DNA of 64,000 bases from Candidatus Eiseniibacteriota bacterium (GTDB taxonomy: Bacteria > Eisenbacteria > RBG-16-71-46): contig JADJLL010000007.1 in NCBI GenBank assembly GCA_016710095.1, positions 41,122 to 105,121 on the forward strand. Direction: 5' to 3'. The translations under genes and the position numbers were made by a program. Numbering within the stretch: position 1 is the stretch's first letter; every line of letters starts with the position of its first letter. Positions 4,478-40,051 of this stretch are shown here, piece after piece. The notes under the pieces are model-generated. The model was not told the DNA's origin and ran no database searches. It saw only the letters and a program-made list of their open reading frames with translations.

Positions 4478-6241
4478 CTATCGCTCCTTTCGGGTCGCGG
4501 AGAGGCCGAGCATCTCGTCCAGCTCGCGCATGGACATCGGCAGGCCGCCGCTGCGCGCGAAGCTGCGCACGCCGTTCATGTCGGTGAGGCTCGAGAGGTA
4601 GCGGTGGAACTGGCCCTGGTAGCTGAGTTCGACCGTGGTGGTCTCGTCCAGGCCCTTGCGCCATTCCGTGAACGCTTCGAGCGGGAACGGATGCAGGATC
4701 TCGGGCATGAACACCCGGTACTCGGGATGCGTCTCGATCCACTCGCTGAGCATGCCGAAGCTGCTGCCCCAGGCGATGATGCCCTTGGCCGCCTTCGGGT
4801 CGCCGAACGTGCGCACCCAGCCGCGCGTGTCGGCCGCGATGGACTCGAGCTTGCGGAAGCGCTTCTCGCTCATGCGCTGGTGCACGCCGGGGTCGGCGCT
4901 CGGATTGCCGTCTTCGGTGTGCTCGATGCCGGCGGCGAGGTACGTGCCGCCCGGCGTGCCGGGCACGCGGAACGCGTTCACGGGCTGGTCCTCGGACAGC
5001 TGGAAGCGGGCCGGGGCGTCCTCGGGCGTCCAGCGCCAGCGCCGCGGCTTGTCGCGCCGGTCGGTGACGCCGTCGCGGATCTGGCGGCGCTGCGCGACGT
5101 ACGCGTCCGACAGCACGAGCACGGGCAGCTGGTAGTTCTCCGCCAGCTCGAACGCGCGGAACATGACGTCACGCGCGTGCACGACGTCGAACACGCCGAG
5201 CACGGCGCGCGGGAAGTCGCCGTGGCCGCCGTAGATCGCGTGGTAGAGGTCGGACTGCTCGGTGCGGCTCGGCATGCCCGTGGCCGGGCCGGCGCGCTGG
5301 CAGTCCACGATGACCGTCGGGATCTCGGCCATGCTGGAGAGGCCCATCATCTCGGTCATGAGCGACAGTCCCGGGCCGCTCGTCGCGGTCATGGACGGCA
5401 CGCCGCCGAAGCTGGCGCCGACGACCATGCCGAGCGCCGAGATCTCGTCCTCGGCCTGGATGACGCGGCCGCCCACGGCGGGCAGTTCGTCGATGAGCGT
5501 CTCCATGACCTCGGACGACGGCGTGATCGGGTAGCCCGCGAAGAACTCGAGCCCGGCCGACATGGCGCCGCGCGCGACGGCTTCGTTGCCCGTCTCGACG
5601 ACGAGCGGCACGCCGTGGCCCTTGAGCTGGAGCAGCTGCGGCACGTTCGGCGCTTCGTACGCCTTGCGGAACGTCGGCATGTTGCGCTCGACGAGCGCGG
5701 GCTTGTGCGAGAAGCGTTCGGCGAGCGCCTGCTGGGCGAGCGACTCGGGCCAGCCGAGCGCGCGGCAGACGAGCGCGAGCGCCATCATGTTCTTCGGCTC
5801 GCCGGCCACTTCGACGTCGCCGTCCCAAGTCGCGAACGGATGACGGAAGGCCGGCTTCTTCATCGTGCCGAGCCAGTCGGGAAGCGCGCCCGGGTCCTTC
5901 TCTTCGAGGATCAGCTGGCTTTCGTCGTGCAGGTGGAGCGAGCCCTTGAAGCGCTTGAGGTCGGAGGCGCGGAAGCACACGAGCACGTCCGTGTCTTCGC
6001 CTTCGTAGCAGATCTCGCGATCGCCGATGCGCAGCACGACGGCGGACTCGCCGCCGCGGATCTGCGGACCGTACGACTGCACGAGGATGCCGTAGAGGCC
6101 CTGGTGCGCGGCCATCTTGAGCAGGAGGTCGCCGATGAGGGCGACGCCGTCACCGCCGCTGCCGGCGATCGCGATGACGAGTGATCGCAGGGGTGTGGCT
6201 GTCGCCGAGGAGGCGGGCATCGCTTCGGTGCGCGTTTCCAT
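4478..6241 (-). CDS. korA: 2-oxoglutarate:ferredoxin oxidoreductase alpha subunit with fused N-terminal gamma domain
   Basis: N-terminal gamma-type domain (IAIAGSGGDGVALIGDLL) fused to a KorA/PorA-type alpha domain (GYPITPSSEV...). Start is 3 nt after the rnfB stop (TGAACCATGG). Confidence 0.9.
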   Translation of the reverse strand: METRTEAMPASSATATPLRSLVIAIAGSGGDGVALIGDLLLKMAAHQGLYGILVQSYGPQIRGGESAVVLRIGDREICYEGEDTDVLVCFRASDLKRFKGSLHLHDESQLILEEKDPGALPDWLGTMKKPAFRHPFATWDGDVEVAGEPKNMMALALVCRALGWPESLAQQALAERFSHKPALVERNMPTFRKAYEAPNVPQLLQLKGHGVPLVVETGNEAVARGAMSAGLEFFAGYPITPSSEVMETLIDELPAVGGRVIQAEDEISALGMVVGASFGGVPSMTATSGPGLSLMTEMMGLSSMAEIPTVIVDCQRAGPATGMPSRTEQSDLYHAIYGGHGDFPRAVLGVFDVVHARDVMFRAFELAENYQLPVLVLSDAYVAQRRQIRDGVTDRRDKPRRWRWTPEDAPARFQLSEDQPVNAFRVPGTPGGTYLAAGIEHTEDGNPSADPGVHQRMSEKRFRKLESIAADTRGWVRTFGDPKAAKGIIAWGSSFGMLSEWIETHPEYRVFMPEILHPFPLEAFTEWRKGLDETTTVELSYQGQFHRYLSSLTDMNGVRSFARSGGLPMSMRELDEMLGLSATRKER

Positions 6242-7128: not shown

Positions 7129-7995
7129 TCACCGGAAGAAGTCGAGGCCGGAGAAGCCCATGAACGCGAGCGCGAACAGTCCGGCGAGCGCGAACGCGAT
7201 GGGCAGGCCTTCGAATGCCTTGGGCACGCGCGCGAGTTCCATCTTCTCGCGGGCGCACGACATCAGGAACAGCGCGAGCGCGAAGCCGAGTCCGGAGCCG
7301 AGCGCGAGCACCAGCGCTTCGATCGCCGAGACCTTGCCCTGCGCGTTCAGGAGCGGCACGGCGAGAATGATGCAGTTCGTCGTGATGAGCATGAGGTACA
7401 CGCCGAAGCTCTTGTGGAGCGCCGGGTGCGTCTTGCGCAGCATCGTGTCGAGGAACTGCACGACCGCGGCGACCGTCCCGATGAACACGAGCACCTGCAG
7501 GAAGCCCAGGTGCAGCGGCTGCAGCGCGAACGTGTCCACGGCCCAGGACGTCATCGCGGTGAAGATCATGACCGCCGTGAACGTGACGCCCATGCCGACC
7601 GCGGCGTCGCGCTTCTTGGAGACGCCGAAGAAGATGCAGAGCCCGAGGTAGCGCGTGAACACGAAGTTGTTGATGAGCGCCGACGACAGGAACAGCGTGA
7701 CGAGCGTCGCCCACGCCGTGGGGAAGACGTCGCGCGAAATCGGCGGGTCCACGACCTCGAGCTTATAGCGCTCGGTCGCGTGCAGCGCCTGCGTCGCGGT
7801 GAGCGTCACCACGCGGCCCTCGGCCTTCACGCCTTCGAGCGCCATGGGCGCGTCGGGCGCGGCGGCTTCGGCGAAGCGGAAGTTGGCGGTCGTCGCGCCC
7901 GCGGGATCGAACGGCCCGCGGAACGTGACGCGCACCTGGTTCGGCGTGCGGATCGTGACGGACTCGATCGTGTTGCCGCCGTCGGCGGCCTGCAC
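7129..7995 (-). CDS. rnfA: Rnf complex subunit A with unusual ~95-aa N-terminal extension (possible true start at 8107 via another frameshift)
   Basis: The canonical RnfA core (…LFLSSALINNFVFTRYLGLCIFFGVSKK...) is preceded in-frame by a protein-like, high-GC3 domain (TIESVTIRTPNQVRVTFRGPFDP...KLEVVDPPI). An ATG at 8107 overlaps the rnfE stop and encodes a signal-anchor-like MAERRFPSVRTALLTALAPLALVAALLLGAAAAW in the +1 frame. Confidence 0.8.
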   Translation of the reverse strand: MQAADGGNTIESVTIRTPNQVRVTFRGPFDPAGATTANFRFAEAAAPDAPMALEGVKAEGRVVTLTATQALHATERYKLEVVDPPISRDVFPTAWATLVTLFLSSALINNFVFTRYLGLCIFFGVSKKRDAAVGMGVTFTAVMIFTAMTSWAVDTFALQPLHLGFLQVLVFIGTVAAVVQFLDTMLRKTHPALHKSFGVYLMLITTNCIILAVPLLNAQGKVSAIEALVLALGSGLGFALALFLMSCAREKMELARVPKAFEGLPIAFALAGLFALAFMGFSGLDFFR

Positions 7996-8099
7996 GGATC
8001 CGGCGCCACGCAGCAGCCGCGCCGAGCAGCAGCGCCGCGACGAGCGCCAGCGGGGCGAGCGCGGTGAGCAGCGCCGTGCGGACGGAAGGGAATCGCCGC

Positions 8100-8750
8100 T
8101 CAGCCATGGTGACCTCCGGCGGCGGGCTTCGCGGTGCCGCCCGTCAGCTTGCGTTCGAGCGCGTTGAAGAACGCCATGAGCAGCGCGATGGAGAAGAAGC
8201 CGCCCGCGGGGAGCGCGAAGAAGAGCAGCGGCTTGGTCTTGAAGAGCACGATCCCGAAGAACGAGCCCGAGCCCAGCACTTCGCGCAACGCGCCGATGAC
8301 CATGAGCGCGATCATGAAGCCGAGGCCCATGCCGACGGCGTCCCAGAACGAGGGCACCAGCGGCTGGCGCGACGCGAACACTTCGAGGCGCGAGATGATG
8401 ATCGCGAACGCCACGATGAGCTTGATGTAGAGCCCGACCTGCGCGTACAGCGACGGCGTGAACGCCGCGAGCGTCATGTCGATCGCGCTCACCCAGACGG
8501 CGATGATGATCGTGTAGACCGGGATGCGCACGCGCGGATGAATGACGCCGCGCGCGATCGCGACGGTCAGGCTGGAGAGCACCTGCACCGCGAGCACGGC
8601 GACGCCGAGGATGAAGCCGTTCGCCACGGTCGTCGTGACCGCGACGGCGGGGCAGAGGCTGAGCGCCAGGCGGAACACGGGGTTCTCGCTGACGATGCCG
8701 TTGAAGAGCAGCTGCAGGGCGCCCGGGGGGCGCTCGGTGGTCTCGCTCAT
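8100..8750 (-). CDS. rnfE: Rnf complex subunit E
   Basis: MSETTERPPGALQLLFNGIVSENPVFRLALSLCPAVAVTT... is an RnfE/NqrD-family membrane protein. Its ATG overlaps the rnfG stop (ATGA). Confidence 0.85.
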   Translation of the reverse strand: MSETTERPPGALQLLFNGIVSENPVFRLALSLCPAVAVTTTVANGFILGVAVLAVQVLSSLTVAIARGVIHPRVRIPVYTIIIAVWVSAIDMTLAAFTPSLYAQVGLYIKLIVAFAIIISRLEVFASRQPLVPSFWDAVGMGLGFMIALMVIGALREVLGSGSFFGIVLFKTKPLLFFALPAGGFFSIALLMAFFNALERKLTGGTAKPAAGGHHG

Positions 8751-9667: not shown

Positions 9668-10647
9668 GACGGGCTCCCGGCGATGGCGGTGCGCTTCGGC
9701 CGGAACCACAGGTCGAGCGCGGGCGCCATGGCATTGGCGATCAGGATGGCGTAGCAGATGCCTTCGGGATATCCGCCGTACACGCGGATCATGCCGGTGA
9801 GCAGGCCGATCATCAGTCCGAACGCGATCTGCGCGCGCGTCGTGCTCGGCGAGGTCACGTAGTCGGTCGCCATGTAGAACGCGCCGATCCAGAAACCGCC
9901 GCTCATGAGGTGCAGCATCGGCACGCCGGTGTGCAGCGTCGAGAGTGCGACGCCCGCGAGCACGCTGAGCGGAATCGCGAGCGTGATGATGCGGCGGGCG
10001 AGCAGCGCGGCGCCGCCGATCGCGACGAGCAGGAGCGAGACTTCGCCGATCGAGCCCGGGCGGAAGCCGAGCGCGAGCGCGTTCCACAGCCCGACGGGGC
10101 TGGAGACGAGCTTCACCGCGGCTTCGAAGCCCTGCTCCTTGAGCACGGCGAGCGGCGTGGCGGTCGTGACCGCGTCGAGCGGCACCCCGAACCACGGCCG
10201 CGGCGTCGCCCAGCCCGAAGTCATGTTGAGCGGGAACGTCGCCATGAGGAACGCGCGGCCGAGCAGCGCCGGGTTGAAGAGATTGAAGCCGAGCCCGCCG
10301 AAGATCATCTTGCCGAGCCCGATCGCGAACATGGAGCCGAGGAAGGCCTGCCACGCCGGAAGGTTGGGATTGACGGTCAGCGCGAGCAGCAGCCCCGTGC
10401 ACACCGCGCTGCCGTCCATGAGCGTCGGACGGCGGCCGAGCGCCTTCTGCGAGACGAACTCGGTGAGCACCGCGCCCGCGATGGACGCGAGGATCACGAA
10501 CGCCGCGTTGATGCCGAACACGAACACGCCCCAGAGCGCGGCCGGCGCGAGCGAGCCGTTGACCCACCACATGATCTTCGAGGTGGATTCCTCGGTGTGC
10601 AGGTGCGGGCCGGGCGAGAGGACGAAGGTCGGATGGGTCTCGCTCAT
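9664..10647 (-). CDS. rnfD: Rnf complex subunit D
   Basis: MSETHPTFVLSPGPHLHTEES...GFNLFNPALLGRAFL...ATGATISS-type NqrB/RnfD membrane protein. ATGA overlap with the rnfC stop. Confidence 0.9.
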   Translation of the reverse strand: MSETHPTFVLSPGPHLHTEESTSKIMWWVNGSLAPAALWGVFVFGINAAFVILASIAGAVLTEFVSQKALGRRPTLMDGSAVCTGLLLALTVNPNLPAWQAFLGSMFAIGLGKMIFGGLGFNLFNPALLGRAFLMATFPLNMTSGWATPRPWFGVPLDAVTTATPLAVLKEQGFEAAVKLVSSPVGLWNALALGFRPGSIGEVSLLLVAIGGAALLARRIITLAIPLSVLAGVALSTLHTGVPMLHLMSGGFWIGAFYMATDYVTSPSTTRAQIAFGLMIGLLTGMIRVYGGYPEGICYAILIANAMAPALDLWFRPKRTAIAGSPS

Positions 10648-12003
10648 GACGCGCTCCTCGTGGCGGCGGCGCGCCGAAGCGCCGACTTCGCGACCTGCAT
10701 GAACTGCACGAGCGGGCGCGAGGACGGACAGACGTAGCTGCAGCAGCCGCACTCGTAGCAGTCGAGCGCGCCGTGCGGTTCGCAGTCGAGCGTGCGCCCG
10801 ACTTCGACGCGCACGGAAACCTGGTCGGGTTCGAGTCCGAGCGGGCAGGCGTCGAGGCAGCGGCCGCAACGGATGCATGCTCCGAAACCGTCCTCGAGCG
10901 GACCGCGGCCGGTGAGCATCACGAGCCCGTTCATGCCCTTGATGAGCGGCACGTCGAGGCGCGGGAGCGATCGGCCCATCATCGGACCGCCCGCGACCAT
11001 GCGGTGCGTCTCGGGCTTGATGCCGCCGCAGAACTCGACGATGTCGGCGAGCGAGGCGCCGAGCGGCGCGCGCACGTTGCGCGGCTGCACGATGCCGGGA
11101 CCCGTCACGGTGAGGATGCGGTCGAGCAGCGGCTTGCGATACCGCAGCGCGTCGTACACGGCCTGCGCGGTCGCGACGTTCTGCACGAGCACGCCGACGG
11201 CCGAAGGCAGCTGCCGTGCGGGAACGGTGCGGCCGGAGACCGCGAACACGAGCTGCTTCTCGGCGCCCTGCGGATACCGCGCGACGCACGGCACGACCTC
11301 GACCGGGATCGAACGGTCGGTCAGCGCCGCGGCCGCCTTGCCGATCGCTTCGATCGCGTCGGGCTTGTCCGATTCGACGCCGATGAGCACCTTCTTCGCT
11401 CCGGCGATCTTCGCGATCAGCACCGAGCCTTCGACGATCTCGGTCGGGTACGCGAGCATCACGCGGTAGTCCGACGTGAGGTACGGCTCGCACTCGGCGC
11501 CGTTCATGACGAGCAGGTCGACCTTGGCCGCACGCGCGAACTCGAGCTTGCGCCAGGTGGGGAAGGCCGCGCCGCCCAGCCCGACGATGCCGGCCTCACG
11601 CACGCGCGAGAGCGATTCCTCGAGCGGCAGGTTGCGCCACTCGGGATCCTCGGGGAACTCCAGCTCGGGGCCGGCGTCGACGTTCGCGCCGATTGCGAGC
11701 GACATGGCGATCGCCATGGTCGGGTGCGGGCGCTTGTCCACGGGCTTGATCTTGCCGCTGATGGGAGCGTGCAGCGGCACGCCCGTCTTGCCGCCCTCGG
11801 CGATCTTCTGGCCGCGGCGCACCATCTCGCCCTTCTTCACGCACGGCTCGGCCGGCTCGCCGAGGTGCTGCAGCAGCGGAAGCACCACCTCGGAAGGCGT
11901 GGGGAGATCCTCGATCTCACGGGAGGCGGTGGCCTCCTTGTGCGGACCGGGATGGATCCCGCCTCGCCCGAAGGTGTGCAGGGAACTCGTCGCAGTGGTC
12001 ATC
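10644..12003 (-). CDS. rnfC: Rnf complex subunit C (NADH/flavin-binding, 2x[4Fe-4S])
   Basis: RnfC hallmarks: GGIHP, LVMNGAECEPYLTSD, C-terminal CIRCGRCLDACP...CYECGCCSYVCPS. ATG is 5 nt after the apbE stop. Confidence 0.9.
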
Positions 12004-25065: not shown

Positions 25066-25081
25066 TGGAACACCTTATGCT
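25066..25081 (+). promoter_or_regulatory. candidate sigma-54 (-24/-12) promoter upstream of the cytochrome/two-component operon
   Basis: TGGAAC-N5-TTATGCT, with GG and GC spaced as in the TGGCAC-N5-TTGCW consensus. Lies ~45 nt upstream of the cytochrome c start. Sequence-pattern only. Confidence 0.25.
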
Positions 25082-25124
25082 GCACTTGTGGCGACGAAGT
25101 GTGTTGGGAGAAAGGGGGATCTGG

Positions 25125-25841
25125 ATGATCCCGAATGCTTCACGTCACGCCTCACGTGTTCGCCGCACAGGTCACGCTGGACTCCTCATTCTCGTGACCG
25201 CCGTCATGACGATGGCAAGCGCCGCAGGCCGCGCCGAAGGTACGCGCGCGATTCCCCTCAAACTGCCTGCTGGCATCGTTTACGACAAGGTTTCCGGTCC
25301 CGACAGCGCCGTCGTCTTCCGTCACACGACTCATGTGGACTACGAAAACGGCCGCTGCACCGGTTGTCACCCCAAGCTCTATCACCTCCTGAATCCCACG
25401 CGCCGCATCGAGCACGCCGAAATGAACCGCGGCGGATCGTGCGGCGCTTGTCATGACGGAACACACGCCTTTGACGTTCGCTCCAAAGCGTCATGCGGTG
25501 CCTGTCACGTTGGCAGAAAGAGCGAGTCGATCCTGAACGCGGAAAGCGAGGCGATGCGCAGCTCGGCGTCGTTCCGCGGACCCGATCCCTACACATACCC
25601 CGCCGGGCGCACGTCGCCGGGGCCCGTCACGTTCAAGCACACCACGCACACGGGCGCCTCGATGAAGTGCAACACCTGCCACTCGCGGCTCTTCGAGATG
25701 AAGGCCCGCCCTCCGTTCGAGGACGAGTGGATGCACGGCAAGGCGAAGTGCGGCGCATGCCACGACGGCAAGGCGAGCTTCGGAGTCGACGACCAGAAGC
25801 TCTGCGGCAAGTGCCATGCGGAAGGAAGGGCGAAGCCATGA
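25125..25841 (+). CDS. periplasmic hexaheme c-type cytochrome
   Basis: Sec signal peptide. Six CXXCH motifs (CTGCH, CGACH x3, CNTCH, CGKCH) in 238 aa. AAAGGGGGA RBS. Confidence 0.8.
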   Translation: MIPNASRHASRVRRTGHAGLLILVTAVMTMASAAGRAEGTRAIPLKLPAGIVYDKVSGPDSAVVFRHTTHVDYENGRCTGCHPKLYHLLNPTRRIEHAEMNRGGSCGACHDGTHAFDVRSKASCGACHVGRKSESILNAESEAMRSSASFRGPDPYTYPAGRTSPGPVTFKHTTHTGASMKCNTCHSRLFEMKARPPFEDEWMHGKAKCGACHDGKASFGVDDQKLCGKCHAEGRAKP

Positions 25842-26581
25842 GCCACGCGCTGTTGCTCGACACCACGCTGTGCACCGGATGCGGCGCGTGCACGGCGGCC
25901 TGCAAGGAACAGAACGCGCTGCCCGTGGACATCGAGGATCGGAACACCGCCTACACGTGGTGCACGGTCGAGAAGCGCGGGAACACGTTCGTCCGCCGGA
26001 TGTGCATGCACTGCGAGTCGCCGACGTGCGCGTCGGTGTGCCCGGTCGGCGCCATGACGAAGAGTCCCGAAGGCCCGGTGCTGTACGACCCCAAGAAGTG
26101 CATCGGCTGCCGCTACTGCATCCAGGCGTGTCCGTTCGACGTGCCGAAGTACCAGTGGGACCGGAACGTTCCCGTCGTGGCCAAGTGCATCATGTGCCAG
26201 CCACGTCTCGCGAAGGGCGAGCCGACGGCGTGCGCCGCCGTGTGCCCGACCGGCGCGACGAAGTTCGGCCATCGTGACGACCTCGTCCGCGAGGCCAAGG
26301 AACGCATCGCCGCGACGCCGGGCCGGTACGTGGACCACATCTATGGACTGCACGAGGCCGGTGGAACGTCGGTGCTCATGTTGTCCGCGGTGCCGTTCGG
26401 CCAGCTCGGCCTGCGCACGAACCTGCCCGACGAACCGCTCGGCCAGCTCACGTGGCGCGTGCTGAGCCGTGTGCCCGACATCGTCCTGATGGGCGGCACG
26501 CTGCTCTACGGCGTCTACTGGATCACGAAGCGCCGGGATCACGTGCGGCGCATCGAGGGCGGGGAGGGGCACGAGTCATGA
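25838..26581 (+). CDS. NrfC/HybA/PsrB-like 4x[4Fe-4S] ferredoxin subunit with C-terminal membrane anchor
   Basis: Four ferredoxin-type Cys clusters (CTGCGACTAAC, CMHCESPTCASVCP, CIGCRYCIQACP, CIMCQ…CAAVCP). C-terminal TM (IVLMGGTLLYGVYWI). ATGA overlap with the cytochrome stop. No obvious Tat signal. Confidence 0.8.
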   Translation: MSHALLLDTTLCTGCGACTAACKEQNALPVDIEDRNTAYTWCTVEKRGNTFVRRMCMHCESPTCASVCPVGAMTKSPEGPVLYDPKKCIGCRYCIQACPFDVPKYQWDRNVPVVAKCIMCQPRLAKGEPTACAAVCPTGATKFGHRDDLVREAKERIAATPGRYVDHIYGLHEAGGTSVLMLSAVPFGQLGLRTNLPDEPLGQLTWRVLSRVPDIVLMGGTLLYGVYWITKRRDHVRRIEGGEGHES

Positions 26582-27735
26582 CGACGATGGAACTGCCGCG
26601 TCCGCGCGGCGTGCGGTTCGGCGCCTGGACGGCGATCTTCGGATTGCTCGTGATCGCGTTCCTCTACGCGACCGTCATGCGCTTCTACAAAGGTCTCGGC
26701 GCCACGACGAACCTCTCGGACGCGTTCCCGTGGGGCATCTGGATCGGGTTCGACATCCTCTGCGGTGTCGGTCTCGCGGCCGGCGCGTTCACGCTCATGG
26801 CCACCGTGCACCTGTTCCACATCGAGAAGTTCAAGCCGATCGTGCGCCCGACGCTGCTGACGGGCTACCTCGGCTACCTGCTCGTATGCGTGGGACTGAT
26901 GTACGACCTCGGGCAGCCGTGGCGCATCTGGCACGCGATCATCTACTGGAACGAACACAGCGTGATGTTCGAGGTCGCGTGGTGCGTGATGCTCTACACC
27001 ACGGTGCTGACGCTCGAGTTCTCGCACATCGTGTTCGAGCGGCTGAACTGGAAGTGGGCGCTGAACATCATGCATGCGCTCAACACGCCGCTCGTGATCC
27101 TGGGCTGCCTGCTCTCCACGCTGCACCAGTCGTCCCTCGGCACGATGTACCTGATCGTCCCCGAGAAGCTGCACGCCCTCTGGTACACGCCGGCGCTGCC
27201 GCTGCTCTTCTACATCTCGGCGATCGGGGCGGGACTCGGGATGGTCATCCTCGAGTCGCATCTGTCCGGGCGGGCCCTGGGGCACGAACTCGAAATGGAC
27301 CTGCTCGAGCCGCTCGGCCGCGTGATGATCGTGGTGCTCGCGATCTTCGGCGTCCTGCGCCTCGACCTCATGTGGCACTCGGGCGCGCTGAAGATGGTGT
27401 TCCAGCCCATGTACGAGAGCCGGATGTTCCTCGCCGAGTTCGGCATCGGCGTGCTGGCCCCGATCTTCCTGCTGGCGTGGCCGCGCGTGCGGCGTTCGCC
27501 GGTGGGGCTCGTGATCGGCGCGACGTGCGCGGTCCTCGGCTTCATGCTGTACCGGTTGAACGTGAGCATCACGGGCATCGAACGCGCGAGCGGCACGCAC
27601 TACGTGCCGTCGTGGATGGAGATGGCCGTTTCGGTCGGCCTCATGGCGATCGGCGTGGCGCTGTTCGGGCTCGCCGTGCGCTACCTGCCGATCTTCCCGG
27701 CGAGCAAGCACGGCTCGCACGCTCACCGGGCGTGA
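26578..27735 (+). CDS. NrfD/PsrC/HybB-like polytopic membrane quinone-interacting subunit
   Basis: ~8-9 predicted TM helices with NrfD-family topology. ATGA overlap with the upstream FeS gene. Confidence 0.85.
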   Translation: MTTMELPRPRGVRFGAWTAIFGLLVIAFLYATVMRFYKGLGATTNLSDAFPWGIWIGFDILCGVGLAAGAFTLMATVHLFHIEKFKPIVRPTLLTGYLGYLLVCVGLMYDLGQPWRIWHAIIYWNEHSVMFEVAWCVMLYTTVLTLEFSHIVFERLNWKWALNIMHALNTPLVILGCLLSTLHQSSLGTMYLIVPEKLHALWYTPALPLLFYISAIGAGLGMVILESHLSGRALGHELEMDLLEPLGRVMIVVLAIFGVLRLDLMWHSGALKMVFQPMYESRMFLAEFGIGVLAPIFLLAWPRVRRSPVGLVIGATCAVLGFMLYRLNVSITGIERASGTHYVPSWMEMAVSVGLMAIGVALFGLAVRYLPIFPASKHGSHAHRA

Positions 27736-27744
27736 GGTGAAGTG

Positions 27745-29655
27745 ATGAAACTGCGGATCGGCGTCCTGACCGTACTGGGAGTCGCGGCCGTCACGGCCGG
27801 GAGCATCGGCATGATGTCCGGCCTGGTGCTCAAGGCGCATCGTGACGCGCAGATCGCCCAGCTCACTCAGGGCGCCGATCAGCTGAGCGAGACGATCGTG
27901 AGCAGCACGTTCTGGGACATGCTCGAGAACCACCGTCCCGCGCTGCACCGCGAGATGATCACGATCGGGAAGCAGAAGGGCATCGAGAAGGTCCGGCTGT
28001 TCAACCGGACCGGCAAGATCATGTTCTCCTCGAGCGAGGGCGAGATCGGGCACTCGCTCGACAAGAAGTACGAGGCCTGCATCGCGTGTCACGCCGCCGA
28101 CCAGCCGATCACGCGGCCGCCGACGAAGGCGCGCGCGCGCATCTACCGCGCGGCGGACGGGCACCGGGTGCTGGGCATGATCCGCCCGATCCACAACGAG
28201 ACGCGCTGCTGGAACTCGGGCTGCCACGCGCACTCGCGCGAGGAGAACGTGCTCGGCGTGCTCGACGTGAACCTGTCGCTCGCCGAGACCGACGCGCGCA
28301 TCGCAGCCGACCAGCGCCGCATGATCCTGCTCGCCGTGCTCATCATGGCGACGATCAGCACGGTCCTGTTGTGGTTCGGCGAGCGGCTCGTGCTGCGGCC
28401 CGTGCGCGAACTGATCGCCGGTACGCGCCGCGTCGCCGCGGGCGACCTGCACACGATGCTGCCCGCCGCCTCGAGCACCGAACTGGGCGACCTCGCGCGC
28501 GCGTTCAACGAGATGACGAGCAAGCTCTCCGACGCGCAGCGCCAGCTCACGCAGGCGGACAAGCTCGCCTCGGTCGGCCGGCTCGCCGCCGGCGTGGCGC
28601 ACGAGATCAACAACCCGCTCACCGGCGTGCTGACGTACGCCTCGTTCCTGCAGAAGCGTCTCGCCGACCGTCCCGAGGTGAAGGAAGACCTCGAGGTGAT
28701 CGTGCGCGAGACGAAGCGCTGTCGCGACATCGTGCGCGGGCTGCTCGACTTCTCGCGCCAGTCGCCGCCGCAGCACAAGCCGACCGACCTCAACGAGATC
28801 GTGCGCCGCGCCGTGGCCGTCGTGATGAACCAGCTCATGCTGCGCCGCGTCGCGCTCGACTTCCATCTCGCCGACGGGCTCGAAGCCGTGCCGGCGGACG
28901 GCAACCAGATCCAGCAGGTCGTCGTGAATCTCGTGATGAACGCCGCCGACGCGATCGGCGAGGGCGGCGGCACGATCGCCGTGCGCACCGCGGCCGTCGA
29001 ACTGCCCGCGCGTGGGAACTCGATCATCCGCCTGGCGCGCTGCCCGCACGGATGCGACGTCCTCGATCCCACGGTGCGCATCGGCGCGCACCCGGCGATC
29101 AAGGTGATCCGCCGCACGGGCGACCGCGACGACGTCGTGCACATGGATCCCGTGTACGGCCGCGCGAACCACCACGCGAGCGGCCCGCTCGAACGCGACA
29201 AGCTCGCGACGTACGCCTGCCCGCGCTGCCGCGCGAAGCTCGACGGCCCCGCGCGCTGCGGCGACTGCGGCGCGCCGACCTTCGCGGTCGTCTCGCCCGA
29301 GCTCGGCCGCATCGAGTGGTGCACGCGCAAGGGCTGCCACTGGACGCGCTGCGAGACGCTCGACGCGTCGGGCCCGCTACGCATGGTCGAGCTGGAAGTG
29401 CGCGACAGCGGCAAGGGCATCGCGCCGGAGGATCTCGATCACCTGTTCGAGCCGTTCTTCACGACCAAGGGCAACCGCGGTCTGGGGCTGGGGCTCGCGG
29501 TGACCTACGGCATCGTCGAGCGCCACGGCGGCACGATCGTGGTGTCGAGCGAGTTGGGGAACGGCGCGACGTTCCTCGTGCGCCTGCCGCTCCTGCGCGC
29601 GGGGCAGAACGCCGCGATCGTCACGGAGTCCGTCCGGACGGGAGGTGTCTCGTGA
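27745..29655 (+). CDS. sensor histidine kinase with periplasmic c-type-heme sensor domain and a Cys-rich (Zn-ribbon-like) insertion inside the HATPase domain
   Basis: TM1…~160-aa periplasmic domain with CIACH (CXXCH) and CWNSGCH (CX4CH)…TM2, then HAMP and HisKA (H box AHEINNPL). HATPase N-box NLVMNAADA, then a ~140-aa insert containing CPHGC, CPRC, CGDC and CTRKGCHWTRC, then the G1/G2 boxes (DSGKGI…GLGLGLAV). Confidence 0.85.
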   Translation: MKLRIGVLTVLGVAAVTAGSIGMMSGLVLKAHRDAQIAQLTQGADQLSETIVSSTFWDMLENHRPALHREMITIGKQKGIEKVRLFNRTGKIMFSSSEGEIGHSLDKKYEACIACHAADQPITRPPTKARARIYRAADGHRVLGMIRPIHNETRCWNSGCHAHSREENVLGVLDVNLSLAETDARIAADQRRMILLAVLIMATISTVLLWFGERLVLRPVRELIAGTRRVAAGDLHTMLPAASSTELGDLARAFNEMTSKLSDAQRQLTQADKLASVGRLAAGVAHEINNPLTGVLTYASFLQKRLADRPEVKEDLEVIVRETKRCRDIVRGLLDFSRQSPPQHKPTDLNEIVRRAVAVVMNQLMLRRVALDFHLADGLEAVPADGNQIQQVVVNLVMNAADAIGEGGGTIAVRTAAVELPARGNSIIRLARCPHGCDVLDPTVRIGAHPAIKVIRRTGDRDDVVHMDPVYGRANHHASGPLERDKLATYACPRCRAKLDGPARCGDCGAPTFAVVSPELGRIEWCTRKGCHWTRCETLDASGPLRMVELEVRDSGKGIAPEDLDHLFEPFFTTKGNRGLGLGLAVTYGIVERHGGTIVVSSELGNGATFLVRLPLLRAGQNAAIVTESVRTGGVS

Positions 29656-30050
29656 GCCGAGCCTGGGACGTGCTGGTGGTGGACGACGAAGCCGTCGTGC
29701 GCGGCGGCGTGAAGCTCGTGCTCGAGCCCGAAGGACTGGCCGTCGCGCAGGCCGCGACCGTCGCCGAGGCGCTCGCGAGCGACGCCCTGAACGAATGCCG
29801 CTTGCTGCTCTGCGACCTGATGCTGCAGGGCGAGAGCGGACTCGAGGTCGTGAGCGAGGCGCGCCGCCGCCGGCCCGCGCTGCCCATCGTGCTCATGACC
29901 GGCTATGCCACCGACGACAACGCCGCCCTCGGCGCGCAGTCCGGTGCGACCGATTTCCTCGCGAAGCCTTTCGATGATGTCGAGCTGTTGGACCAGGTAC
30001 GGCGTGTCCTCGGGGATGCCCATGCCGACGAGAAGGAGGGATCGTCATGA
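29652..30050 (+). CDS. single-domain CheY-like response regulator
   Basis: GTGA overlap with the kinase stop. VLVVDDE…D-L-M-L receiver with conserved Asp (LLLCDLMLQG) and Lys (FLAKPF). Confidence 0.75.
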   Translation: MSRAWDVLVVDDEAVVRGGVKLVLEPEGLAVAQAATVAEALASDALNECRLLLCDLMLQGESGLEVVSEARRRRPALPIVLMTGYATDDNAALGAQSGATDFLAKPFDDVELLDQVRRVLGDAHADEKEGSS

Positions 30051-30102
30051 CCGCGCTTCTGGTGGTCGTGCTGTGTGTGTTGTTCCTGGGATCGAACTCG
30101 GC

Positions 30103-31194
30103 GTGCGCGCCGTGAACAAGAACCTCGAAGCCGCCCGCGTGCGGCGCGAGCGTGAAGCCGTGCTCAAGGCGCCCGTGAAGCTGGACATCGCGACCGAGAC
30201 GCCCAGCCTGCAGCGCGCCGAAGTGCCGAACGCGAAGGCCCGCATCCTCGCCGTGGACGACGAGGCGATCGTGCTCGACTCGTTCCGCAAGATCCTCGTG
30301 CTCGCCGGCTTCAGCGTGGACACCGTGAACACCGGTCCCGAGGCGCTCGCGCTCGTGCGCCAGCGCGACTACGACTTCCTGTTCACCGATCTCAAGATGC
30401 CGGTCATGGAAGGCACCGAGGTCGTGAAGGCCGTGAAGCACCTGCGTCCGGACGTGGACGTCGCCGTGATCACCGGCTTCGCCACGATCGAGACCGCCGT
30501 CGAAACGATGATGCACGGCGCGGTGGACTACGTGCAGAAGCCGTTCACGGAAGAAGAGCTCGTCGCGTTCGCGAACCGCATGTACGTGCGCCGTCAGGCG
30601 CGCATCGAGTCGCAGTCGAAGCCGGCCGTGCGCGTGGTCGCGCCCGAGCTGGTGGACATCATGGCGTCGCGTGAGTACGTCGTGCCCGGCGGCATGTTCG
30701 TGGCGACCGGCCACACGTGGGCGCGCATCGAGGACACCGGCGAAGTGTGCGTCGGCATCGACGACTTCGCGCGCAAGGCGATCGGCAAGGTCGAGCGCGT
30801 CGAGCTGCCCGCGCCCGGCACGAGCGTGAAGCGCGGCGAGGTGCTGTTCGTGGTGCGCCGCAAGGATGAGCACGTGCGCTTCCGTTCGCCCGTGAGCGGC
30901 ACGGTGACGGCGGTGAACGGCGACGTGAAGAAGGACGCCCGCGCGATGCTGGAGAGCCCGTACGAGCACGGTTGGACGTGCATGCTGCACCCGACCGACC
31001 TGACGCTCGACCTGGCAAACCTGCGCATCGGCAAGACCGTCGTGAGCTGGTACCAGGACGAGGTGACCGCGCTGCGCAAGGCGAACTCGGAAGCGACCGA
31101 CGGCGTGGTCCGCTGGTCGGCGCTCGAGGAGCGCTTCATGGGCGCCGGCGACGCCCCGCGCGAAACCACGACGGAGATCGTCGAAGTCGGGTAG
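30103..31194 (+). CDS. response regulator: receiver domain fused to a glycine-cleavage-system H-protein-like (lipoyl-carrier-fold) domain
   Basis: REC (ARILAVDDE…FLFTDLKMP…VQKPF) followed by a clear GcvH-like region (HTWARIEDTGEVCVGIDDFARKAIGKVERVELPAPGTSVKRGEVLFVV…SPVSGTVTAVNGDV). The lipoyl-Lys of the ESVKA motif is not conserved in register (VVRRKDEH). Start chosen at in-frame GTG 30103; 30112 is also possible. Confidence 0.75.
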   Translation: MRAVNKNLEAARVRREREAVLKAPVKLDIATETPSLQRAEVPNAKARILAVDDEAIVLDSFRKILVLAGFSVDTVNTGPEALALVRQRDYDFLFTDLKMPVMEGTEVVKAVKHLRPDVDVAVITGFATIETAVETMMHGAVDYVQKPFTEEELVAFANRMYVRRQARIESQSKPAVRVVAPELVDIMASREYVVPGGMFVATGHTWARIEDTGEVCVGIDDFARKAIGKVERVELPAPGTSVKRGEVLFVVRRKDEHVRFRSPVSGTVTAVNGDVKKDARAMLESPYEHGWTCMLHPTDLTLDLANLRIGKTVVSWYQDEVTALRKANSEATDGVVRWSALEERFMGAGDAPRETTTEIVEVG

Positions 31195-31228
31195 AGGACG
31201 GGTGGTGGGGAGCTGCACGCAACAAGAC

Positions 31229-31258
31229 GGGCGGCGCGTTCGAAAGAGCGCGCCGCCC
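31229..31258. terminator. bidirectional rho-independent terminator between convergent genes
   Basis: Perfect 10-bp stem GGGCGGCGCG-TTCGAAAGAG-CGCGCCGCCC. Confidence 0.55.
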
Positions 31259-31282
31259 GATGCGTTGTCGTCGAAGTGAGGT

Positions 31283-32336: not shown

Positions 32337-32425
32337 TGGTGCCGGAGGCGGGGGTCGAACCCGCACACGATTTTGGTCGTACCGGATTTTGAGTCCGGCG
32401 CGTCTGCCAGTTCCGCCACTCCGGC
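32337..32425 (-). tRNA. tRNA-Leu (anticodon CAA)
   Basis: 89-nt cloverleaf GCCGGAGTGGCGGAACTGGCAGACGCGCCGGACTCAAAATCCGG…long variable arm…GGGTTCGACCCCCGCCTCCGGCACCA. Anticodon loop CT-CAA-AA. CCA encoded. Confidence 0.9.
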
Positions 32426-36539: not shown

Positions 36540-38129
36540 ATGGATTCGCGAATCATCGAGGCGGCGCGCACCGCCTTCCGCTCGAATGGCTCCACGCTCA
36601 CCCTCGGCGCGCTCGTGCATGCCGGAGAATGCAATGCCGAGCCGCTCGCCGCATTGCCGCTCGCCATGGCGAACCGCCACGGGCTGATCGCCGGCGCGAC
36701 CGGAACGGGCAAGACCAAGACGCTCCAGCTGCTCGCCGAGCAGTTCTCCGCGGCGGGCGTCCCGGTCTTCCTCGCCGACCTGAAGGGCGACCTCTCGGGG
36801 CTCTCCATGCCCGGCGAGGCGAGCGAGCGCGTGAACCAGCGCGCGAAGGACACGGGCTACTCGTGGAAGGCGGGCGGCTGCCCGGTCGAGTACCTGAGCC
36901 TCACCGGCAAAGGCGGCGCCCAGCTGCGCGCGACGGTGTCGTCGTTCGGTCCGCTGCTGCTCTCGCGCGTGCTCGGGCTCAACGACACGCAGACGAGCGT
37001 GCTCTCGATGGTGTTCAAGTACGCCGACGACCAGAAGCTCGCGCTGCTCGACCTGGCGGACCTGCGCGCGGTGCTTCAGTACCTGAGCGGTGACGGCGCC
37101 GAGGAACTCGCGAACTACGGCGGCATGAGCAAGGCGAGCGTCGGCGTGCTGCTGCGCGAGATGGTCGAGCTGGAACAGCAGGGCGCGGGCGCGTTCTTCG
37201 GCAATCCCGAGTTCGACCTCGACGACCTGCTCGCGGTGAAGGACGGCAAGGGGCTCGTGAGCGTGCTCCAGCTGCGCGACGTGCAGGACAAGCCCGGGCT
37301 CTTCTCGACGTTCATGATGTGGATGCTCGCGCGGCTCTACCACGAACTGCCCGAAGTCGGCGATGTGGACAAGCCCAAGCTCGTCTTCTTCTTCGACGAA
37401 GCGCACCTGCTGTTCGACGACGCGAGCAAGGAGTTCCTCGACCAGGTCGAGCAGGTCGTGCGGCTCATTCGCTCGAAGGGCGTCGGCGTGTGGTTCGTCA
37501 CGCAGAGCCCGAAGGACGTGCCGGCCGACATCCTCGGCCAGCTCGGCAACCGCGTGCAGCACGCGCTGCGCGCGTTCACGCCGGACGACGAGAAGGCGCT
37601 GCGCGCCGCCGCGCGTACGTTCCCGAAGACCGACTTCTACGACGTCGAGGAGATCCTCACCACGCTCGGCATCGGCGAGGCGTTCGTCACGGTGCTCGCG
37701 CCCAACGGCGCGCCGACCCCGCCGTTCGCCGTGCGCATGATTCCGCCGGCGTCTCGCATGGGTCCGCTCAGCGAAGGTGAGCTGGTGAGCGCGCTCGCTG
37801 CATCCGAGCAGGTGCGCGAGTACGCGGTGGCCGAGGATCGCGACAGCGCTCGCGAAGCGCTCGCGCGGCGCATGGCCGGTGACTCGGCGGCCGCGGCCCC
37901 GGTGGCACCTGCCGCTCCCGTGCAGCCGTCCGGAGTGCCGCCCGTGGCCGAACAGCAGCCCGATCCGGGCGCGCGCGCGGCCGAAACGGTGGCGGGCGCG
38001 GCAGCCATGGTCGGCGCGGCGCTCAACTCGCCCGTCGGCCGTCAGGTGGCGCGCACACTCGTAAGCACAGTGACGCGCGGTCTGCTCGGAGCGCTTCTGG
38101 GTTCACCGCCACGGCGCCGACGCCGATAG
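36540..38129 (+). CDS. DUF853-family P-loop NTPase (YjgR/HerA-FtsK-clade helicase-like ATPase) with Pro/Ala-rich C-terminal tail
   Basis: Walker A GATGTGKT, Walker B VFFFDEAH, overall YjgR-like organisation. GGAGG RBS. ~110-aa low-complexity tail (…AAAPVAPAAPVQPSGVPPVAEQQPDP…) ending just before the poly-G block. Confidence 0.8.
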   Translation: MDSRIIEAARTAFRSNGSTLTLGALVHAGECNAEPLAALPLAMANRHGLIAGATGTGKTKTLQLLAEQFSAAGVPVFLADLKGDLSGLSMPGEASERVNQRAKDTGYSWKAGGCPVEYLSLTGKGGAQLRATVSSFGPLLLSRVLGLNDTQTSVLSMVFKYADDQKLALLDLADLRAVLQYLSGDGAEELANYGGMSKASVGVLLREMVELEQQGAGAFFGNPEFDLDDLLAVKDGKGLVSVLQLRDVQDKPGLFSTFMMWMLARLYHELPEVGDVDKPKLVFFFDEAHLLFDDASKEFLDQVEQVVRLIRSKGVGVWFVTQSPKDVPADILGQLGNRVQHALRAFTPDDEKALRAAARTFPKTDFYDVEEILTTLGIGEAFVTVLAPNGAPTPPFAVRMIPPASRMGPLSEGELVSALAASEQVREYAVAEDRDSAREALARRMAGDSAAAAPVAPAAPVQPSGVPPVAEQQPDPGARAAETVAGAAAMVGAALNSPVGRQVARTLVSTVTRGLLGALLGSPPRRRRR

Positions 38130-38139
38130 AAGAGAGCAC

Positions 38140-39950
38140 GAGCGGTGTGGGGCGGTCGGGGCGCCCGCGCCCGGGGCGCACCCGGGGCGGGGGCACGCGC
38201 CGCCCCCGCCGACGACGGCCGCCCGCGGCGACGCGGACCAAAGCCACGCGCGGCGCCCCCCGGGGGCCGGCCCGCCGGCAACCCGCGCGCGGCCGCCCGG
38301 GGGGGGGGAGGGGGGGGGTTCGGCGCCCGACGTCCCGGGGGGGGCCCGCCCGACTTCCGGCCGGGGGGAACCCGCGCCGTTCGGGTCGCGGGGCCAGACA
38401 CGGCCGCGACCGCGCACCGGGGGGGGGGGCCGGGGCGGGCAGGGGGGCCGGGCCGTTCCCCGGGCCTCAAGCAAGGGGATGTTGTTGTTCAGCGAGCGGG
38501 GTTGGGGACACCCGCCCGCACCCGCCTCGCGCCCGCGGGGGGCAGGTTTCCGGGGCTTCCGGAGGGCGGGGGGCTGGGCGCGGGGGGTTGCCCCGCCCCG
38601 CGCCAGCCCGCGGGGGAGACGGGGGGCCTTCGGCGCCGCCCGGGCCGCCGGCGCCGGGGCGCACGCGCACGGGGGGGGCCGGGCGGGGGGGGGGTTGGCG
38701 AAGTCTGGGGGGGGCCCGGGCCCCGGGGGTTCACCGTCGGGGGGGGGGGTTCGCACAGACGTTGGGGCTAGCCCCGGGGGGGCGGGCACTGCCACCCACA
38801 CCGCCGCGAAGAAAAAGCGTTCGCCCGCACGCCCACCGGATTCGAAACGGGAGGGGAGGGGACGTTGCTCGGGGGGGCGCCCGGGGAAGCCTTCAGGCCT
38901 TCGGGGGGGCGCCCTACGACCCCCGCGTTGCCCGGGCGCACCGAGTCGCCGGGGCGCCACGACGCCGGATCGGGGGGGCGCCCGGGCCCGGCCCCGGGGG
39001 GGGCTCGGCGGGGGGCCGCCCGGCAGGGGGCGGGGCGACCTGAGCGCGTACTACCCCCGTTCGCGCTGGGTGGGAAACGCGGCGACCGCGCCCCGGGGGG
39101 GGGGGGGGGGCCAGGGGGGCCCCCCGGGGGGGGGGGAAGGGGTGGTCGGCGGGGCGCCCCGCAGCCTGGGCTGGGGGGGAGGGGGGGACGGGGAGCGATT
39201 TCGGGGAGGAGCCCGACGCGGGGAGGGATTTCGCCCGCACGCCGCAACTGTCGCCACCGGCGGAGGGGGCTGGGGCGGGGGCCCCCGCCCGGGGAGCAGA
39301 AGCGCAACCACCCCACGCCCGCACCCGAACACGACGCCCCCCCGGGCGGGCCGCCCCCCAGGGCCCTTCCAGGCTGACGACGGCCCGCTTCAAAAGCGCC
39401 GCGGACGGGGACAACACGAGCCCGCCGGGGGCGTACTACCCCGCCGACAAGACGGTCGATCGGGAGCGGGGGGGGGGCGTCCCGGACCCCGGGCCGGGGC
39501 GGGGGACCAACCCCCCGAGGAAAAAGACTGACCAGCCGAAGACGGCCTTCGAACGTCACCGCGAAGTCGATGGCGGGGCGAAGACGGCACGGGGGGGGGG
39601 ATTTGGGGGCCTGACGCCAGCGCGGGGGGGGGATGATCACGCGCCGGGGGGTTGTTGGTTGAACAGCTGGGGGGGGGGCGGGGGGGGGGGGGACCAGGGG
39701 CGGGGGGGGGAGAAGCTCCGGGGGAAGCCCGGGTACTGGGGGCAACGGGGAGGGGGAGGACGCTGGGGGGGGGGGCAGGGGAGGGGGAACGGGAAGGGAA
39801 ACTGGGGACGCCTCGGGGCCCGAGGGGGAGGGGGGGGCCGGGGACGCGCCCGACCCGGGGGGGGAGGGGGGGGCGCCGGGCCGGAAATCCGCTTCCGCCG
39901 AGTCTCTTCGGCCGGCGCGAGTTGACGATGCCGCCGTTGCTGGTGTAGAA
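38140..39950. repeat. 1.8-kb G-homopolymer-rich low-complexity block (G runs of 7-15 nt, strong G-over-C skew on + strand), most likely assembly/base-calling artefact
   Basis: Dozens of runs like gggggggggg interspersed with short normal-looking fragments. All six frames give only G/P/R-rich translations. No counterpart elsewhere except nt 1-150. Confidence 0.6.
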
Positions 39951-39975
39951 ACACCCGGCCCGAAACGACTTCGGT

Positions 39976-40051
39976 GGGGCTGTAGCTCAGCTGGGAGAGC
40001 GCTTGACTGGCAGTCAAGAGGTCGACGGTTCGATCCCGTTCAGCTCCACCA
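39976..40051 (+). tRNA. tRNA-Ala (anticodon GGC)
   Basis: GGGGCTGTAGCTCAGCTGGGAGAGCGCTTGACTGGCAGTCAAGAGGTCGACGGTTCGATCCCGTTCAGCTCCACCA. G3:U70 alanine identity pair. Anticodon loop CT-GGC-AG. Confidence 0.9.

Follow-up and report, generated by a model that had tools for sequence, protein, structure and literature searches.

The 64-kb window analysed here (64,000 nucleotides of contig JADJLL010000007.1 from Candidatus Eiseniibacteriota bacterium; coordinates are positions in this window) carries a cassette of six co-directional genes at 25066-31258. In this cassette, a tail-anchored iron-sulfur (FeS) protein and a NrfD-family membrane subunit are encoded together with a sensor histidine kinase that bears heme-binding motifs and with RGH, a membrane-anchored protein combining a receiver (REC) domain with a lysine-less GcvH-like domain. 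FeS protein, NrfD subunit, heme-motif kinase and the anchored protein with the H-protein fold are co-inherited across many phyla. We propose that redox-sensing phosphorylation directly controls the quinone-linked membrane electron-transfer module via RGH, a reading to which we assign a probability of roughly 45 %. NrfD-type modules are the commonest link in anaerobes between periplasmic redox chemistry and the quinone pool, and to our knowledge almost nothing has been learned about how their activity is controlled after synthesis.

The evidence for a conserved core comes from a scan in which each GTDB species was represented by a single genome and which yielded at least 572 loci encoding RGH relatives in more than eight phyla or classes. 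The best 80 of these RGH loci, which were described by lineage, belong to Eisenbacteria, Acidobacteriota, Binatia, Gemmatimonadota, KSB1/Zhuqueibacterota, Ignavibacteria and Caldisericaceae, the Acidobacteriota being represented by Holophagaceae (among them cultured Geothrix species), Vicinamibacteria, Terriglobia and Thermoanaerobaculia. Compared loci carry L-numbers; the proteins of L003, for example, are 90-97 % identical to those of the window. Genes for FeS protein, NrfD, kinase and RGH occur together in 52 of the 53 informative loci, i.e. those with enough flanking sequence, and are arranged as FeS-NrfD-kinase-RGH (44 loci), as kinase-RGH-FeS-NrfD (6) or in another order (2). All-against-all clustering of the open reading frames (ORFs) from 82 loci showed that only these four families are shared; the next clusters reflect lineage-specific synteny, and the genes flanking the cassette differ between loci.

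A first-pass annotation, made from the letters of the window alone, had described the six proteins as hexaheme cytochrome c, FeS protein, NrfD, kinase, REC and REC-GcvH, and Pfam and NCBIfam matches bear out all six identities. It had further joined the kinase and the regulators to the redox genes in one operon. This linkage is conserved for the FeS-NrfD pair, with which kinase and RGH stay associated also where the gene order is rearranged, but not for the cytochrome gene, which is variable. No NrfA, molybdopterin or hydrogenase subunit emerged as a conserved neighbour from the clustering of the 82 loci, in agreement with the earlier statement that a catalytic partner is missing, and for the same reason we rejected the idea that the cassette is a truncated copy that has lost its catalytic subunit. 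In one Eisenbacteria metagenome-assembled genome (MAG), JBGANH01, two RGH copies are present (L002 and L005), with 97 % and 68 % identity to the query. Within this MAG, the cassette thus appears to be duplicated; L005 shows it in full, and the L002 sequence begins at the REC gene.

RGH is encoded at 30047-31194 on the plus strand and matches the REC domain (2.4e-26) as well as GCV_H (PF01597, 1e-16). Its homologues, publicly annotated only as 'response regulator' or 'CheY-like', are nearly all 382 aa long and start with MTALLVVVLCVLFLG, a transmembrane helix. An AlphaFold2 (AF2) model with a predicted local distance difference test score (pLDDT) of 85.6 consists of a long N-terminal helix (residues 2-41), the receiver, the H-protein domain and a conserved C-terminal helix, and a Foldseek comparison of its GcvH-like domain with the E. 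coli H-protein (3ab9) resulted in a TM-score of 0.93 and a root-mean-square deviation of 1.5 Å. Residues D71, D72, D115, T143 and K165 of the receiver are invariant in the homologues. The position of the lipoyl lysine (ESVKA) is occupied by Asp in the window and is a variable column across 18-47 homologues; the hairpin tip has the form RRG-x-E and offers no other invariant Lys or Cys. Because the lipoyl lysine is not conserved, the H-protein fold of RGH should not be lipoylatable in the normal way, and the score against TIGR00527 (53.5) stays below the equivalog cut-off of 115.85. Mean column identity in the GcvH-like domain together with the C-terminal helix is 74-76 %, with many invariant residues.

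In the window itself, the RGH gene is frameshifted. Its ancestral start is the ATG at 30047, which overlaps the REC stop codon in an ATGA and opens the reading frame for the N-terminal transmembrane helix. Compared with L002, L003 and L087, one A is missing at 30091 (GGGAATCG to GGGATCG), and the frame shifts after codon 15. An intact 382-aa RGH is found in P0001 (99 % identity) and in the metagenome contig L087, which is 98.6 % identical to the window over 13.2 kb with three gaps only. The deletion could be a true mutation at strain level or a fault of the assembly. As it is specific to the window, the 52-nt gap that had been reported in front of the last gene is an artefact.

A sister cassette bears on the role of the GcvH-like protein. 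With the GcvH-like domain alone as query, a word-indexed search gave few matches, but these pointed to a family of 876 hits, 220-aa proteins annotated as 'glycine cleavage system protein H', in which a lysine-less GcvH-like domain is preceded by an N-terminal membrane helix and followed by a C-terminal extension and which have no REC domain. In all four contexts that were inspected (L082, 8001-14262; L084, L085 and L086, 8001-~14280), the gene order is anchored GcvH-like protein, FeS, NrfD, heme-sensor kinase, NtrC-type sigma-54 activator and archaemetzincin. The sister FeS protein, NrfD, kinase and GcvH-like domain are 51 %, 53 %, 39 % and 34 % identical to their counterparts in the window. 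The second heme site of the sister kinases reads CX2CH or CX3CH, the hairpin tip of the GcvH-like domain is DGR, and a lipoyl lysine is likewise missing. Two further neighbours were considered as partners and rejected: a hydrogenase beside L082, which is not conserved in L084-L086, and radical-SAM genes near the sister cassette, which belong to different families. Since the anchored form accompanies FeS-NrfD with or without a receiver, the GcvH-like protein probably belongs to the membrane module, as a partner or subunit. This departs from the first-pass annotation, which had cast it as an effector; a free output is less likely, as the protein is membrane-anchored and its REC-less form is encoded directly ahead of FeS-NrfD.

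The kinase (27745-29655, plus strand, 636 aa) is predicted to consist of a transmembrane segment, a periplasmic PAS-like sensor, a second transmembrane segment, HAMP, HisKA (1.6e-16) and HATPase_c (3.5e-22). The periplasmic motifs that had been claimed for it are CIACH at nt 28078-28092 (CXXCH, residue ~112) and CWNSGCH at nt 28207-28227 (CX4CH, residue ~155), and both are kept in 69 of 71 homologues. In an alignment of 22 sequences, C112, C115, H116, C155, C160, H161 and H163 as well as M59 of the sensor are invariant. A profile of 22 sensor domains matches the Geobacter chemoreceptor structures 3b42 (GSU0935; E = 5.5e-6) and 3b47 (GSU0582; E = 0.011), and the single kinase sequence reaches 20.5 bits against PF21563 (Pfam cut-off 27). 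By these matches, the sensor domain belongs to the heme-c PAS-like family of Geobacter, whose members GSU0582 and GSU0935 carry one c-type heme each (PMC3460858). The second kinase motif aligns to the heme site of these sensors. Because the first CXXCH sits in an inserted segment and the second motif at the homologous heme site, the kinase sensor is likely to carry two hemes, as far as motifs can tell.

A second peculiarity of the kinase is a Cys-rich insertion in the ATP-binding domain (nt 28987-29364, plus strand, approximate limits). It comprises ~125 aa (residues ~415-540) with 7-10 Cys between the N-box and the G1-box and is shared, with unchanged length, by 27 of 71 kinases from several phyla. 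The conserved motifs CPxG[CH], DPxYG, CxxC...CxxC and CxxxGC may point to binding of Zn or an FeS cluster; a comparison of the insertion with Pfam and PDB gave no significant match.

The FeS protein (25838-26581, plus strand, 247 aa) contains 16 Cys in four cluster motifs, i.e. 4x[4Fe-4S], and matches Fer4_11 (2.5e-22), HmcB (1.2e-71) and HybA (1.9e-60), with scores against HmcB and HybA under the equivalog cut-offs and an alignment that begins at position 36 of the HmcB model. Its C-terminus is formed by the hydrophobic tail VPDIVLMGGTLLYGVYWI followed by KRRDHVRR, and the protein thereby shows the four clusters and the tail that define the HybA/HmcB type. The adjacent gene (26578-27735, plus strand, 385 aa) codes for a predicted quinone-interacting integral membrane subunit of the NrfD family (PF03916, 2.5e-24; 86.9 bits against a cut-off of 25.8, residues 44-334) with 10 predicted helices. 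It matches HmcC (1.5e-89) and HybB (1.7e-87), and the equivalog models are again not reached (HybB NF008133, 294.4 against 450; HmcC NF045714, 300.9 against 550). Because all NCBIfam scores lie under the equivalog cut-offs, we regard the two proteins of the window as relatives and not as orthologues of HybA/HybB and HmcB/HmcC.

An unusual property of the FeS protein concerns its export. Neither an RRxFLK motif nor a hydrophobic N-region of a twin-arginine translocation (Tat) signal was found in the FeS protein of the window, in ~55 relatives or in the sister family, and a search for a hidden signal upstream in the FeS reading frame (65 loci) revealed none in the window-like class. A canonical RRxFLK signal is present in the FeS proteins of six distant loci (L068, L069, L071, L073, L075 and L078) from KSB1, Ignavibacteria, Thermoanaerobaculia and Caldisericaceae. 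NrfD identity to the window amounts to 47-93 % in the class with Tat-less FeS and to 33-42 % in the Tat-bearing class, and these two distinct FeS-NrfD lineages are both linked to the kinase-RGH pair. The lysine/arginine (K/R) bias of the NrfD loops (16 vs 7 in the window) corresponds to an N-in/C-in topology in both classes alike, and we therefore rejected an inverted NrfD as the reason for the missing signal. As this bias is the same in both classes and the tail anchor is kept, a periplasmic location of the FeS protein would still be expected. For a signal-less tail-anchored FeS protein encoded beside a HybB-like subunit, hitchhiking on a Tat-targeted FeFe hydrogenase has been proposed (PMC10924467); the cassette contains no gene for such a partner. 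The cassette thus poses a concrete puzzle of Tat export, namely a tail-anchored FeS protein that has neither a signal peptide nor an encoded carrier partner.

The two remaining genes are variable or dispensable. The cytochrome gene (25125-25841, plus strand, 238 aa), with a ribosome-binding-site-like GGGGGA upstream of its ATG at 25125, encodes a hexaheme periplasmic cytochrome c with an N-terminal signal-like segment and two c7-type triheme domains (6 CXXCH; PF14522, 8.1e-29 in two stretches; TIGR04257, 1.3e-34). In the window it is co-encoded with the FeS protein and the membrane subunit, and the FeS start overlaps its end. The heme number of the cassette cytochrome is 6 in Eisenbacteria, 3 in Vicinamibacteria and Binatia and 5, 8 or 13 elsewhere; in L070 and L077 the cytochrome is fused to the C-terminus of NrfD via an extra helix, and in the Holophagaceae loci and the sister cassette the gene is missing. 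The cytochrome is therefore a variable component outside the conserved core. The first-pass annotation had pictured the module as a stand-alone quinol:cytochrome conduit, which is consistent with the lack of a conserved catalytic subunit; the cytochrome is, however, not part of the core, and modules of this kind have already been described. The small receiver (29652-30050, plus strand, 132 aa; PF00072, 2.5e-23) is CheY-like and has the active-site residues DD, D, T and K. Its gene is missing in Holophagaceae, and in L070 a soluble REC-GcvH protein takes its place. The latter locus, from a Gemmatimonadota MAG, combines both variations: the soluble protein has 245 aa (7486-8223), and a c7-type triheme domain is attached to NrfD through an additional transmembrane helix (10205-11749).

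From these observations we derive the following working model. FeS-NrfD would shuttle electrons between the menaquinone pool and c-type hemes in the periplasm, the electron partner being the co-encoded hexaheme c7 cytochrome in Eisenbacteria and unlinked cytochromes or the kinase hemes in lineages without the cytochrome gene. The kinase would monitor its periplasmic hemes for their redox or ligand state and phosphorylate the REC domain of RGH, which is placed between the membrane anchor and the GcvH-like domain. The residues for such a phosphorelay are complete, with the H-box of HisKA and HATPase_c in the kinase and Asp pockets in both receivers. Phosphorylation of RGH would then alter the engagement of its GcvH-like domain with the cytoplasmic face of FeS-NrfD, so that electron or proton flow is tuned post-translationally, and the small REC protein could take up phosphate as a sink or branch. 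The same type of kinase would act transcriptionally in the sister cassette, via the NtrC-type activator, the GcvH-like partner there having no REC domain. The co-encoded module would be the most economical target of the signal, because RGH is the sole response regulator in the Holophagaceae cassette and has no DNA-binding domain, which is also missing from the small REC protein, and because the REC-less homologue of RGH is an operon mate of FeS-NrfD. A more specific version, in which the lipoate-less H-protein-fold domain serves as a cytoplasmic regulatory subunit of the NrfD-type module and phosphorylation of the receiver by the diheme sensor kinase gates electron/proton flow within seconds and without transcription, is doubtful at present. 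If true, it would give the GcvH fold a new role and response regulators a new class of output, in hundreds of soil and sediment lineages.

Several points weigh against the proposed control of the module by RGH. We infer the contact of RGH with NrfD or the FeS protein and do not take it from experiment or structure, and the attachment of heme to the kinase is read from the motifs only; a single-sequence structure model of the kinase sensor was unusable (pLDDT 39). The missing Tat signal of the FeS protein in ~55 loci conflicts with the standard orientation of NrfD, which puts the location of the FeS protein, and hence the electron path, in doubt. One of the 53 informative loci, L010, contains kinase, REC and RGH and has no FeS-NrfD within 9 kb. 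Finally, the frameshifted RGH of the window may be inactive or unanchored.

The competitor that survives best reverses the direction of the signal. Here, FeS-NrfD (with the cytochrome, where present) would be a sensory input that wires the menaquinone pool to the kinase hemes, and RGH would signal to an unlinked target; the first-pass annotation had proposed an arrangement of the same kind. In Holophagaceae and in the sister cassettes the kinase is, by motif, the only c-heme protein and could serve as the 'cytochrome subunit' of the module, and it is always adjacent to FeS-NrfD. The position of the REC-less GcvH-like gene at the head of the sister FeS-NrfD operon, however, fits a component of the complex and not a diffusible output, RGH itself is held at the membrane, and no conserved third-party target gene lies near the cassette. 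We therefore consider an input device unlikely, though it deserves more attention than the two explanations that follow.

A second possibility places the FeS domain in the cytoplasm, where the GcvH-like domain would be a true carrier or acceptor that docks on FeS, with a modification or a sulfur/electron relay as in sHdr-type lipoate-binding proteins. The consistent lack of a Tat signal in the window-like class and in the sister cassette would be explained in this way, and NrfD-type complexes that face the cytoplasm exist (SoeABC, PMC8076601). A lipoyl synthase gene beside RGH in part of the Holophagaceae and near the L086 cassette could be taken in the same sense. Yet the GcvH-like domain has neither a conserved lipoyl lysine nor another invariant Lys or Cys at its hairpin tip, the loops of NrfD are biased in K/R content just as in relatives with Tat-exported FeS, the FeS protein keeps its C-terminal tail anchor as in periplasmic HybA (PMC10924467), and the radical-SAM neighbours are of differing kinds and not conserved. 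A cytoplasmic carrier is thus improbable, and regulation of the module via RGH remains our preferred explanation.

As to the lipoyl synthase genes themselves, the gene (Radical_SAM and LIAS_N domains) lies directly downstream of RGH on the opposite strand in ~26 Holophagaceae loci (10169-11170 on the minus strand in L037), and a second one is located ~3 kb from the sister cassette in L086 (4283-5155). This adjacency may be a coincidence of synteny, or it may hint at a connection with lipoate metabolism.

Upstream of the cassette, a sigma-54-like promoter motif, TGGAACACCTTATGCT (TGGAAC-N5-ATGCT with -24 GG / -12 GC spacing), is found at 25066-25081 on the plus strand; the strict pattern has 3 matches on both strands of the 64-kb window. 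Matches at the same position, 38-59 nt upstream of the first gene, recur in L003, L005 and L008, and the motif is missing upstream in most other loci. An enhancer-binding protein is encoded neither in the 64-kb window nor in the cassettes of the window's type. The possible sigma-54 promoter of the first-pass annotation is therefore present as a motif and recurs in a few relatives, but most loci lack it and the window holds no activator for it. An ordinary transcriptional two-component system beside a respiratory operon, in which REC and RGH titrate phosphate and an unlinked sigma-54 activator is in control, would agree with these promoter matches and with the NtrC-type regulator of the sister cassette, but is the least probable of the explanations given the restricted occurrence of the motif, the missing enhancer-binding protein and the strong conservation of the GcvH-like domain and C-terminal helix (74-76 %), which is unexpected for a mere phosphate sink.

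Comparison with known systems shows that the redox half of the cassette is of a described kind, in which a cytochrome c is combined with a tail-anchored FeS protein and a HybB-like subunit and no catalytic subunit is present. The modules compiled in PMC10924467, including NhcABC(D)/HmcABC of Desulfovibrio (PMC8076601), share with it the four-cluster ferredoxin-like protein with a hydrophobic C-terminal tail, the cofactor-less NrfD/HybB-like subunit and a periplasmic multiheme cytochrome, and they likewise have no catalytic subunit and no conserved flanks. In contrast to these modules, the FeS protein of the window has no Tat signal, the cassette cytochrome is c7-type or missing, and only the cassette described here is always accompanied by a heme-sensor kinase and an anchored GcvH-like protein, neither of which is reported there. 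HybA-HybB of E. coli hydrogenase 2 (Hyd-2) is among the best-scoring named relatives, aligns over nearly the full length and has the same tail-anchor design; it differs in that the window proteins score under the equivalog cut-offs, that no hydrogenase genes are part of the cassette and that the FeS protein is Tat-less. Cbc4 of Geobacter sulfurreducens (CbcSTU), a putative quinol:cytochrome c oxidoreductase and proposed conduit from menaquinol to the periplasm, follows the same design of cytochrome c, 4x[4Fe-4S] protein and membrane subunit without a catalytic partner (10.1101/2025.04.14.648717). CbcS is, however, a membrane-anchored tetraheme cytochrome of the NapC/NirT type, whereas the cytochrome of the window is a soluble c7-type hexaheme protein, and the Cbc4 paper mentions no linked kinase or GcvH-like protein.

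The regulatory half has relatives as well. The profile match to the Geobacter chemoreceptors GSU0582 and GSU0935 (PMC3460858) spans the N-terminal helices and the heme-binding strand; in contrast to these receptors, the sensor is mounted on a histidine kinase, the homologous site has the form CX2-5CH (CX4CH in the window), and an extra CXXCH is located in the inserted segment. With GcvH, RGH shares the fold and the signature regions HxW, DDFA and PYxxGW, and it differs from it by the lost lipoyl lysine, the membrane anchor, the fused REC domain and the extra conserved C-terminal helix. Our literature search returned nothing relevant on GcvH-like response regulators or on this combination of genes. 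We found no description of the obligatory linkage between module and kinase, of the anchored lysine-less partner with the H-protein fold or of the receiver inserted in that partner. The earlier remark that the exact composition is undescribed thus stands for the combination, but not for its redox half (PMC10924467, PMC8076601, 10.1101/2025.04.14.648717).

Acidobacteriota, Eisenbacteria and other soil and sediment phyla that have received little study carry the cassette in abundance; in it, an NrfD-type module is coupled with a heme-based sensor and with an unannotated class of response regulators. It provides a model of fast redox feedback on electron transport that can be tested directly, Geothrix being available as a cultured host; the RGH protein of Geothrix fermentans is WP_052571539.1. 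The cassette also gives a context to thousands of proteins that wrongly bear the annotation 'glycine cleavage system H'.

The layout of the cassette in the window was largely well described by the first-pass annotation, with two errors, the gene count and the start of the last gene. It had announced a seven-gene operon, and we count six genes; a seventh was sought and rejected, as the remaining ORFs in 25066-31258 are all artefacts of high GC content, lying antisense or out of frame. The ATGA overlaps at 25838 and 26578, the 9-nt gap before 27745 and the GTGA overlap at 29652 are all present, and only the 52-nt gap falls away, with the frameshift discussed above. Downstream of RGH, a 14-bp GC-rich hairpin at 31228-31259 lies between convergent genes. 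Its fold energy is -39.3 kcal/mol (z = -5.5), and none of 200 shuffled sequences was as stable. A consensus scan for sigma-70 promoters and terminators called nothing, this hairpin included. The strong terminator reported at this position is thus a stable hairpin and a possible terminator, but one that has no U-tract and was not called by the terminator scan.

Next to the hairpin, the segment 31265-32335, which abuts a tRNA-Leu(caa) gene (32337-32425, minus strand), does not align to L087, where a serpin gene is found instead. By this comparison, it is a strain-variable segment at a tRNA gene. Further downstream, the stretch 38001-40000 has a GC content of 0.80, a GC skew of 0.19 and an AT skew of 0.21 and contains long G-rich tracts and short tandem repeats (e.g. 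39091-39161 and 39804-39874), which reflects either an unusual composition or a low-quality stretch of the assembly. In Geothrix alkalitolerans (L037), groEL and the FeS gene are separated by an 850-bp non-coding stretch (~4590-5440) that holds a ~90-bp direct repeat; the same peptide-like string occurs in two frames.

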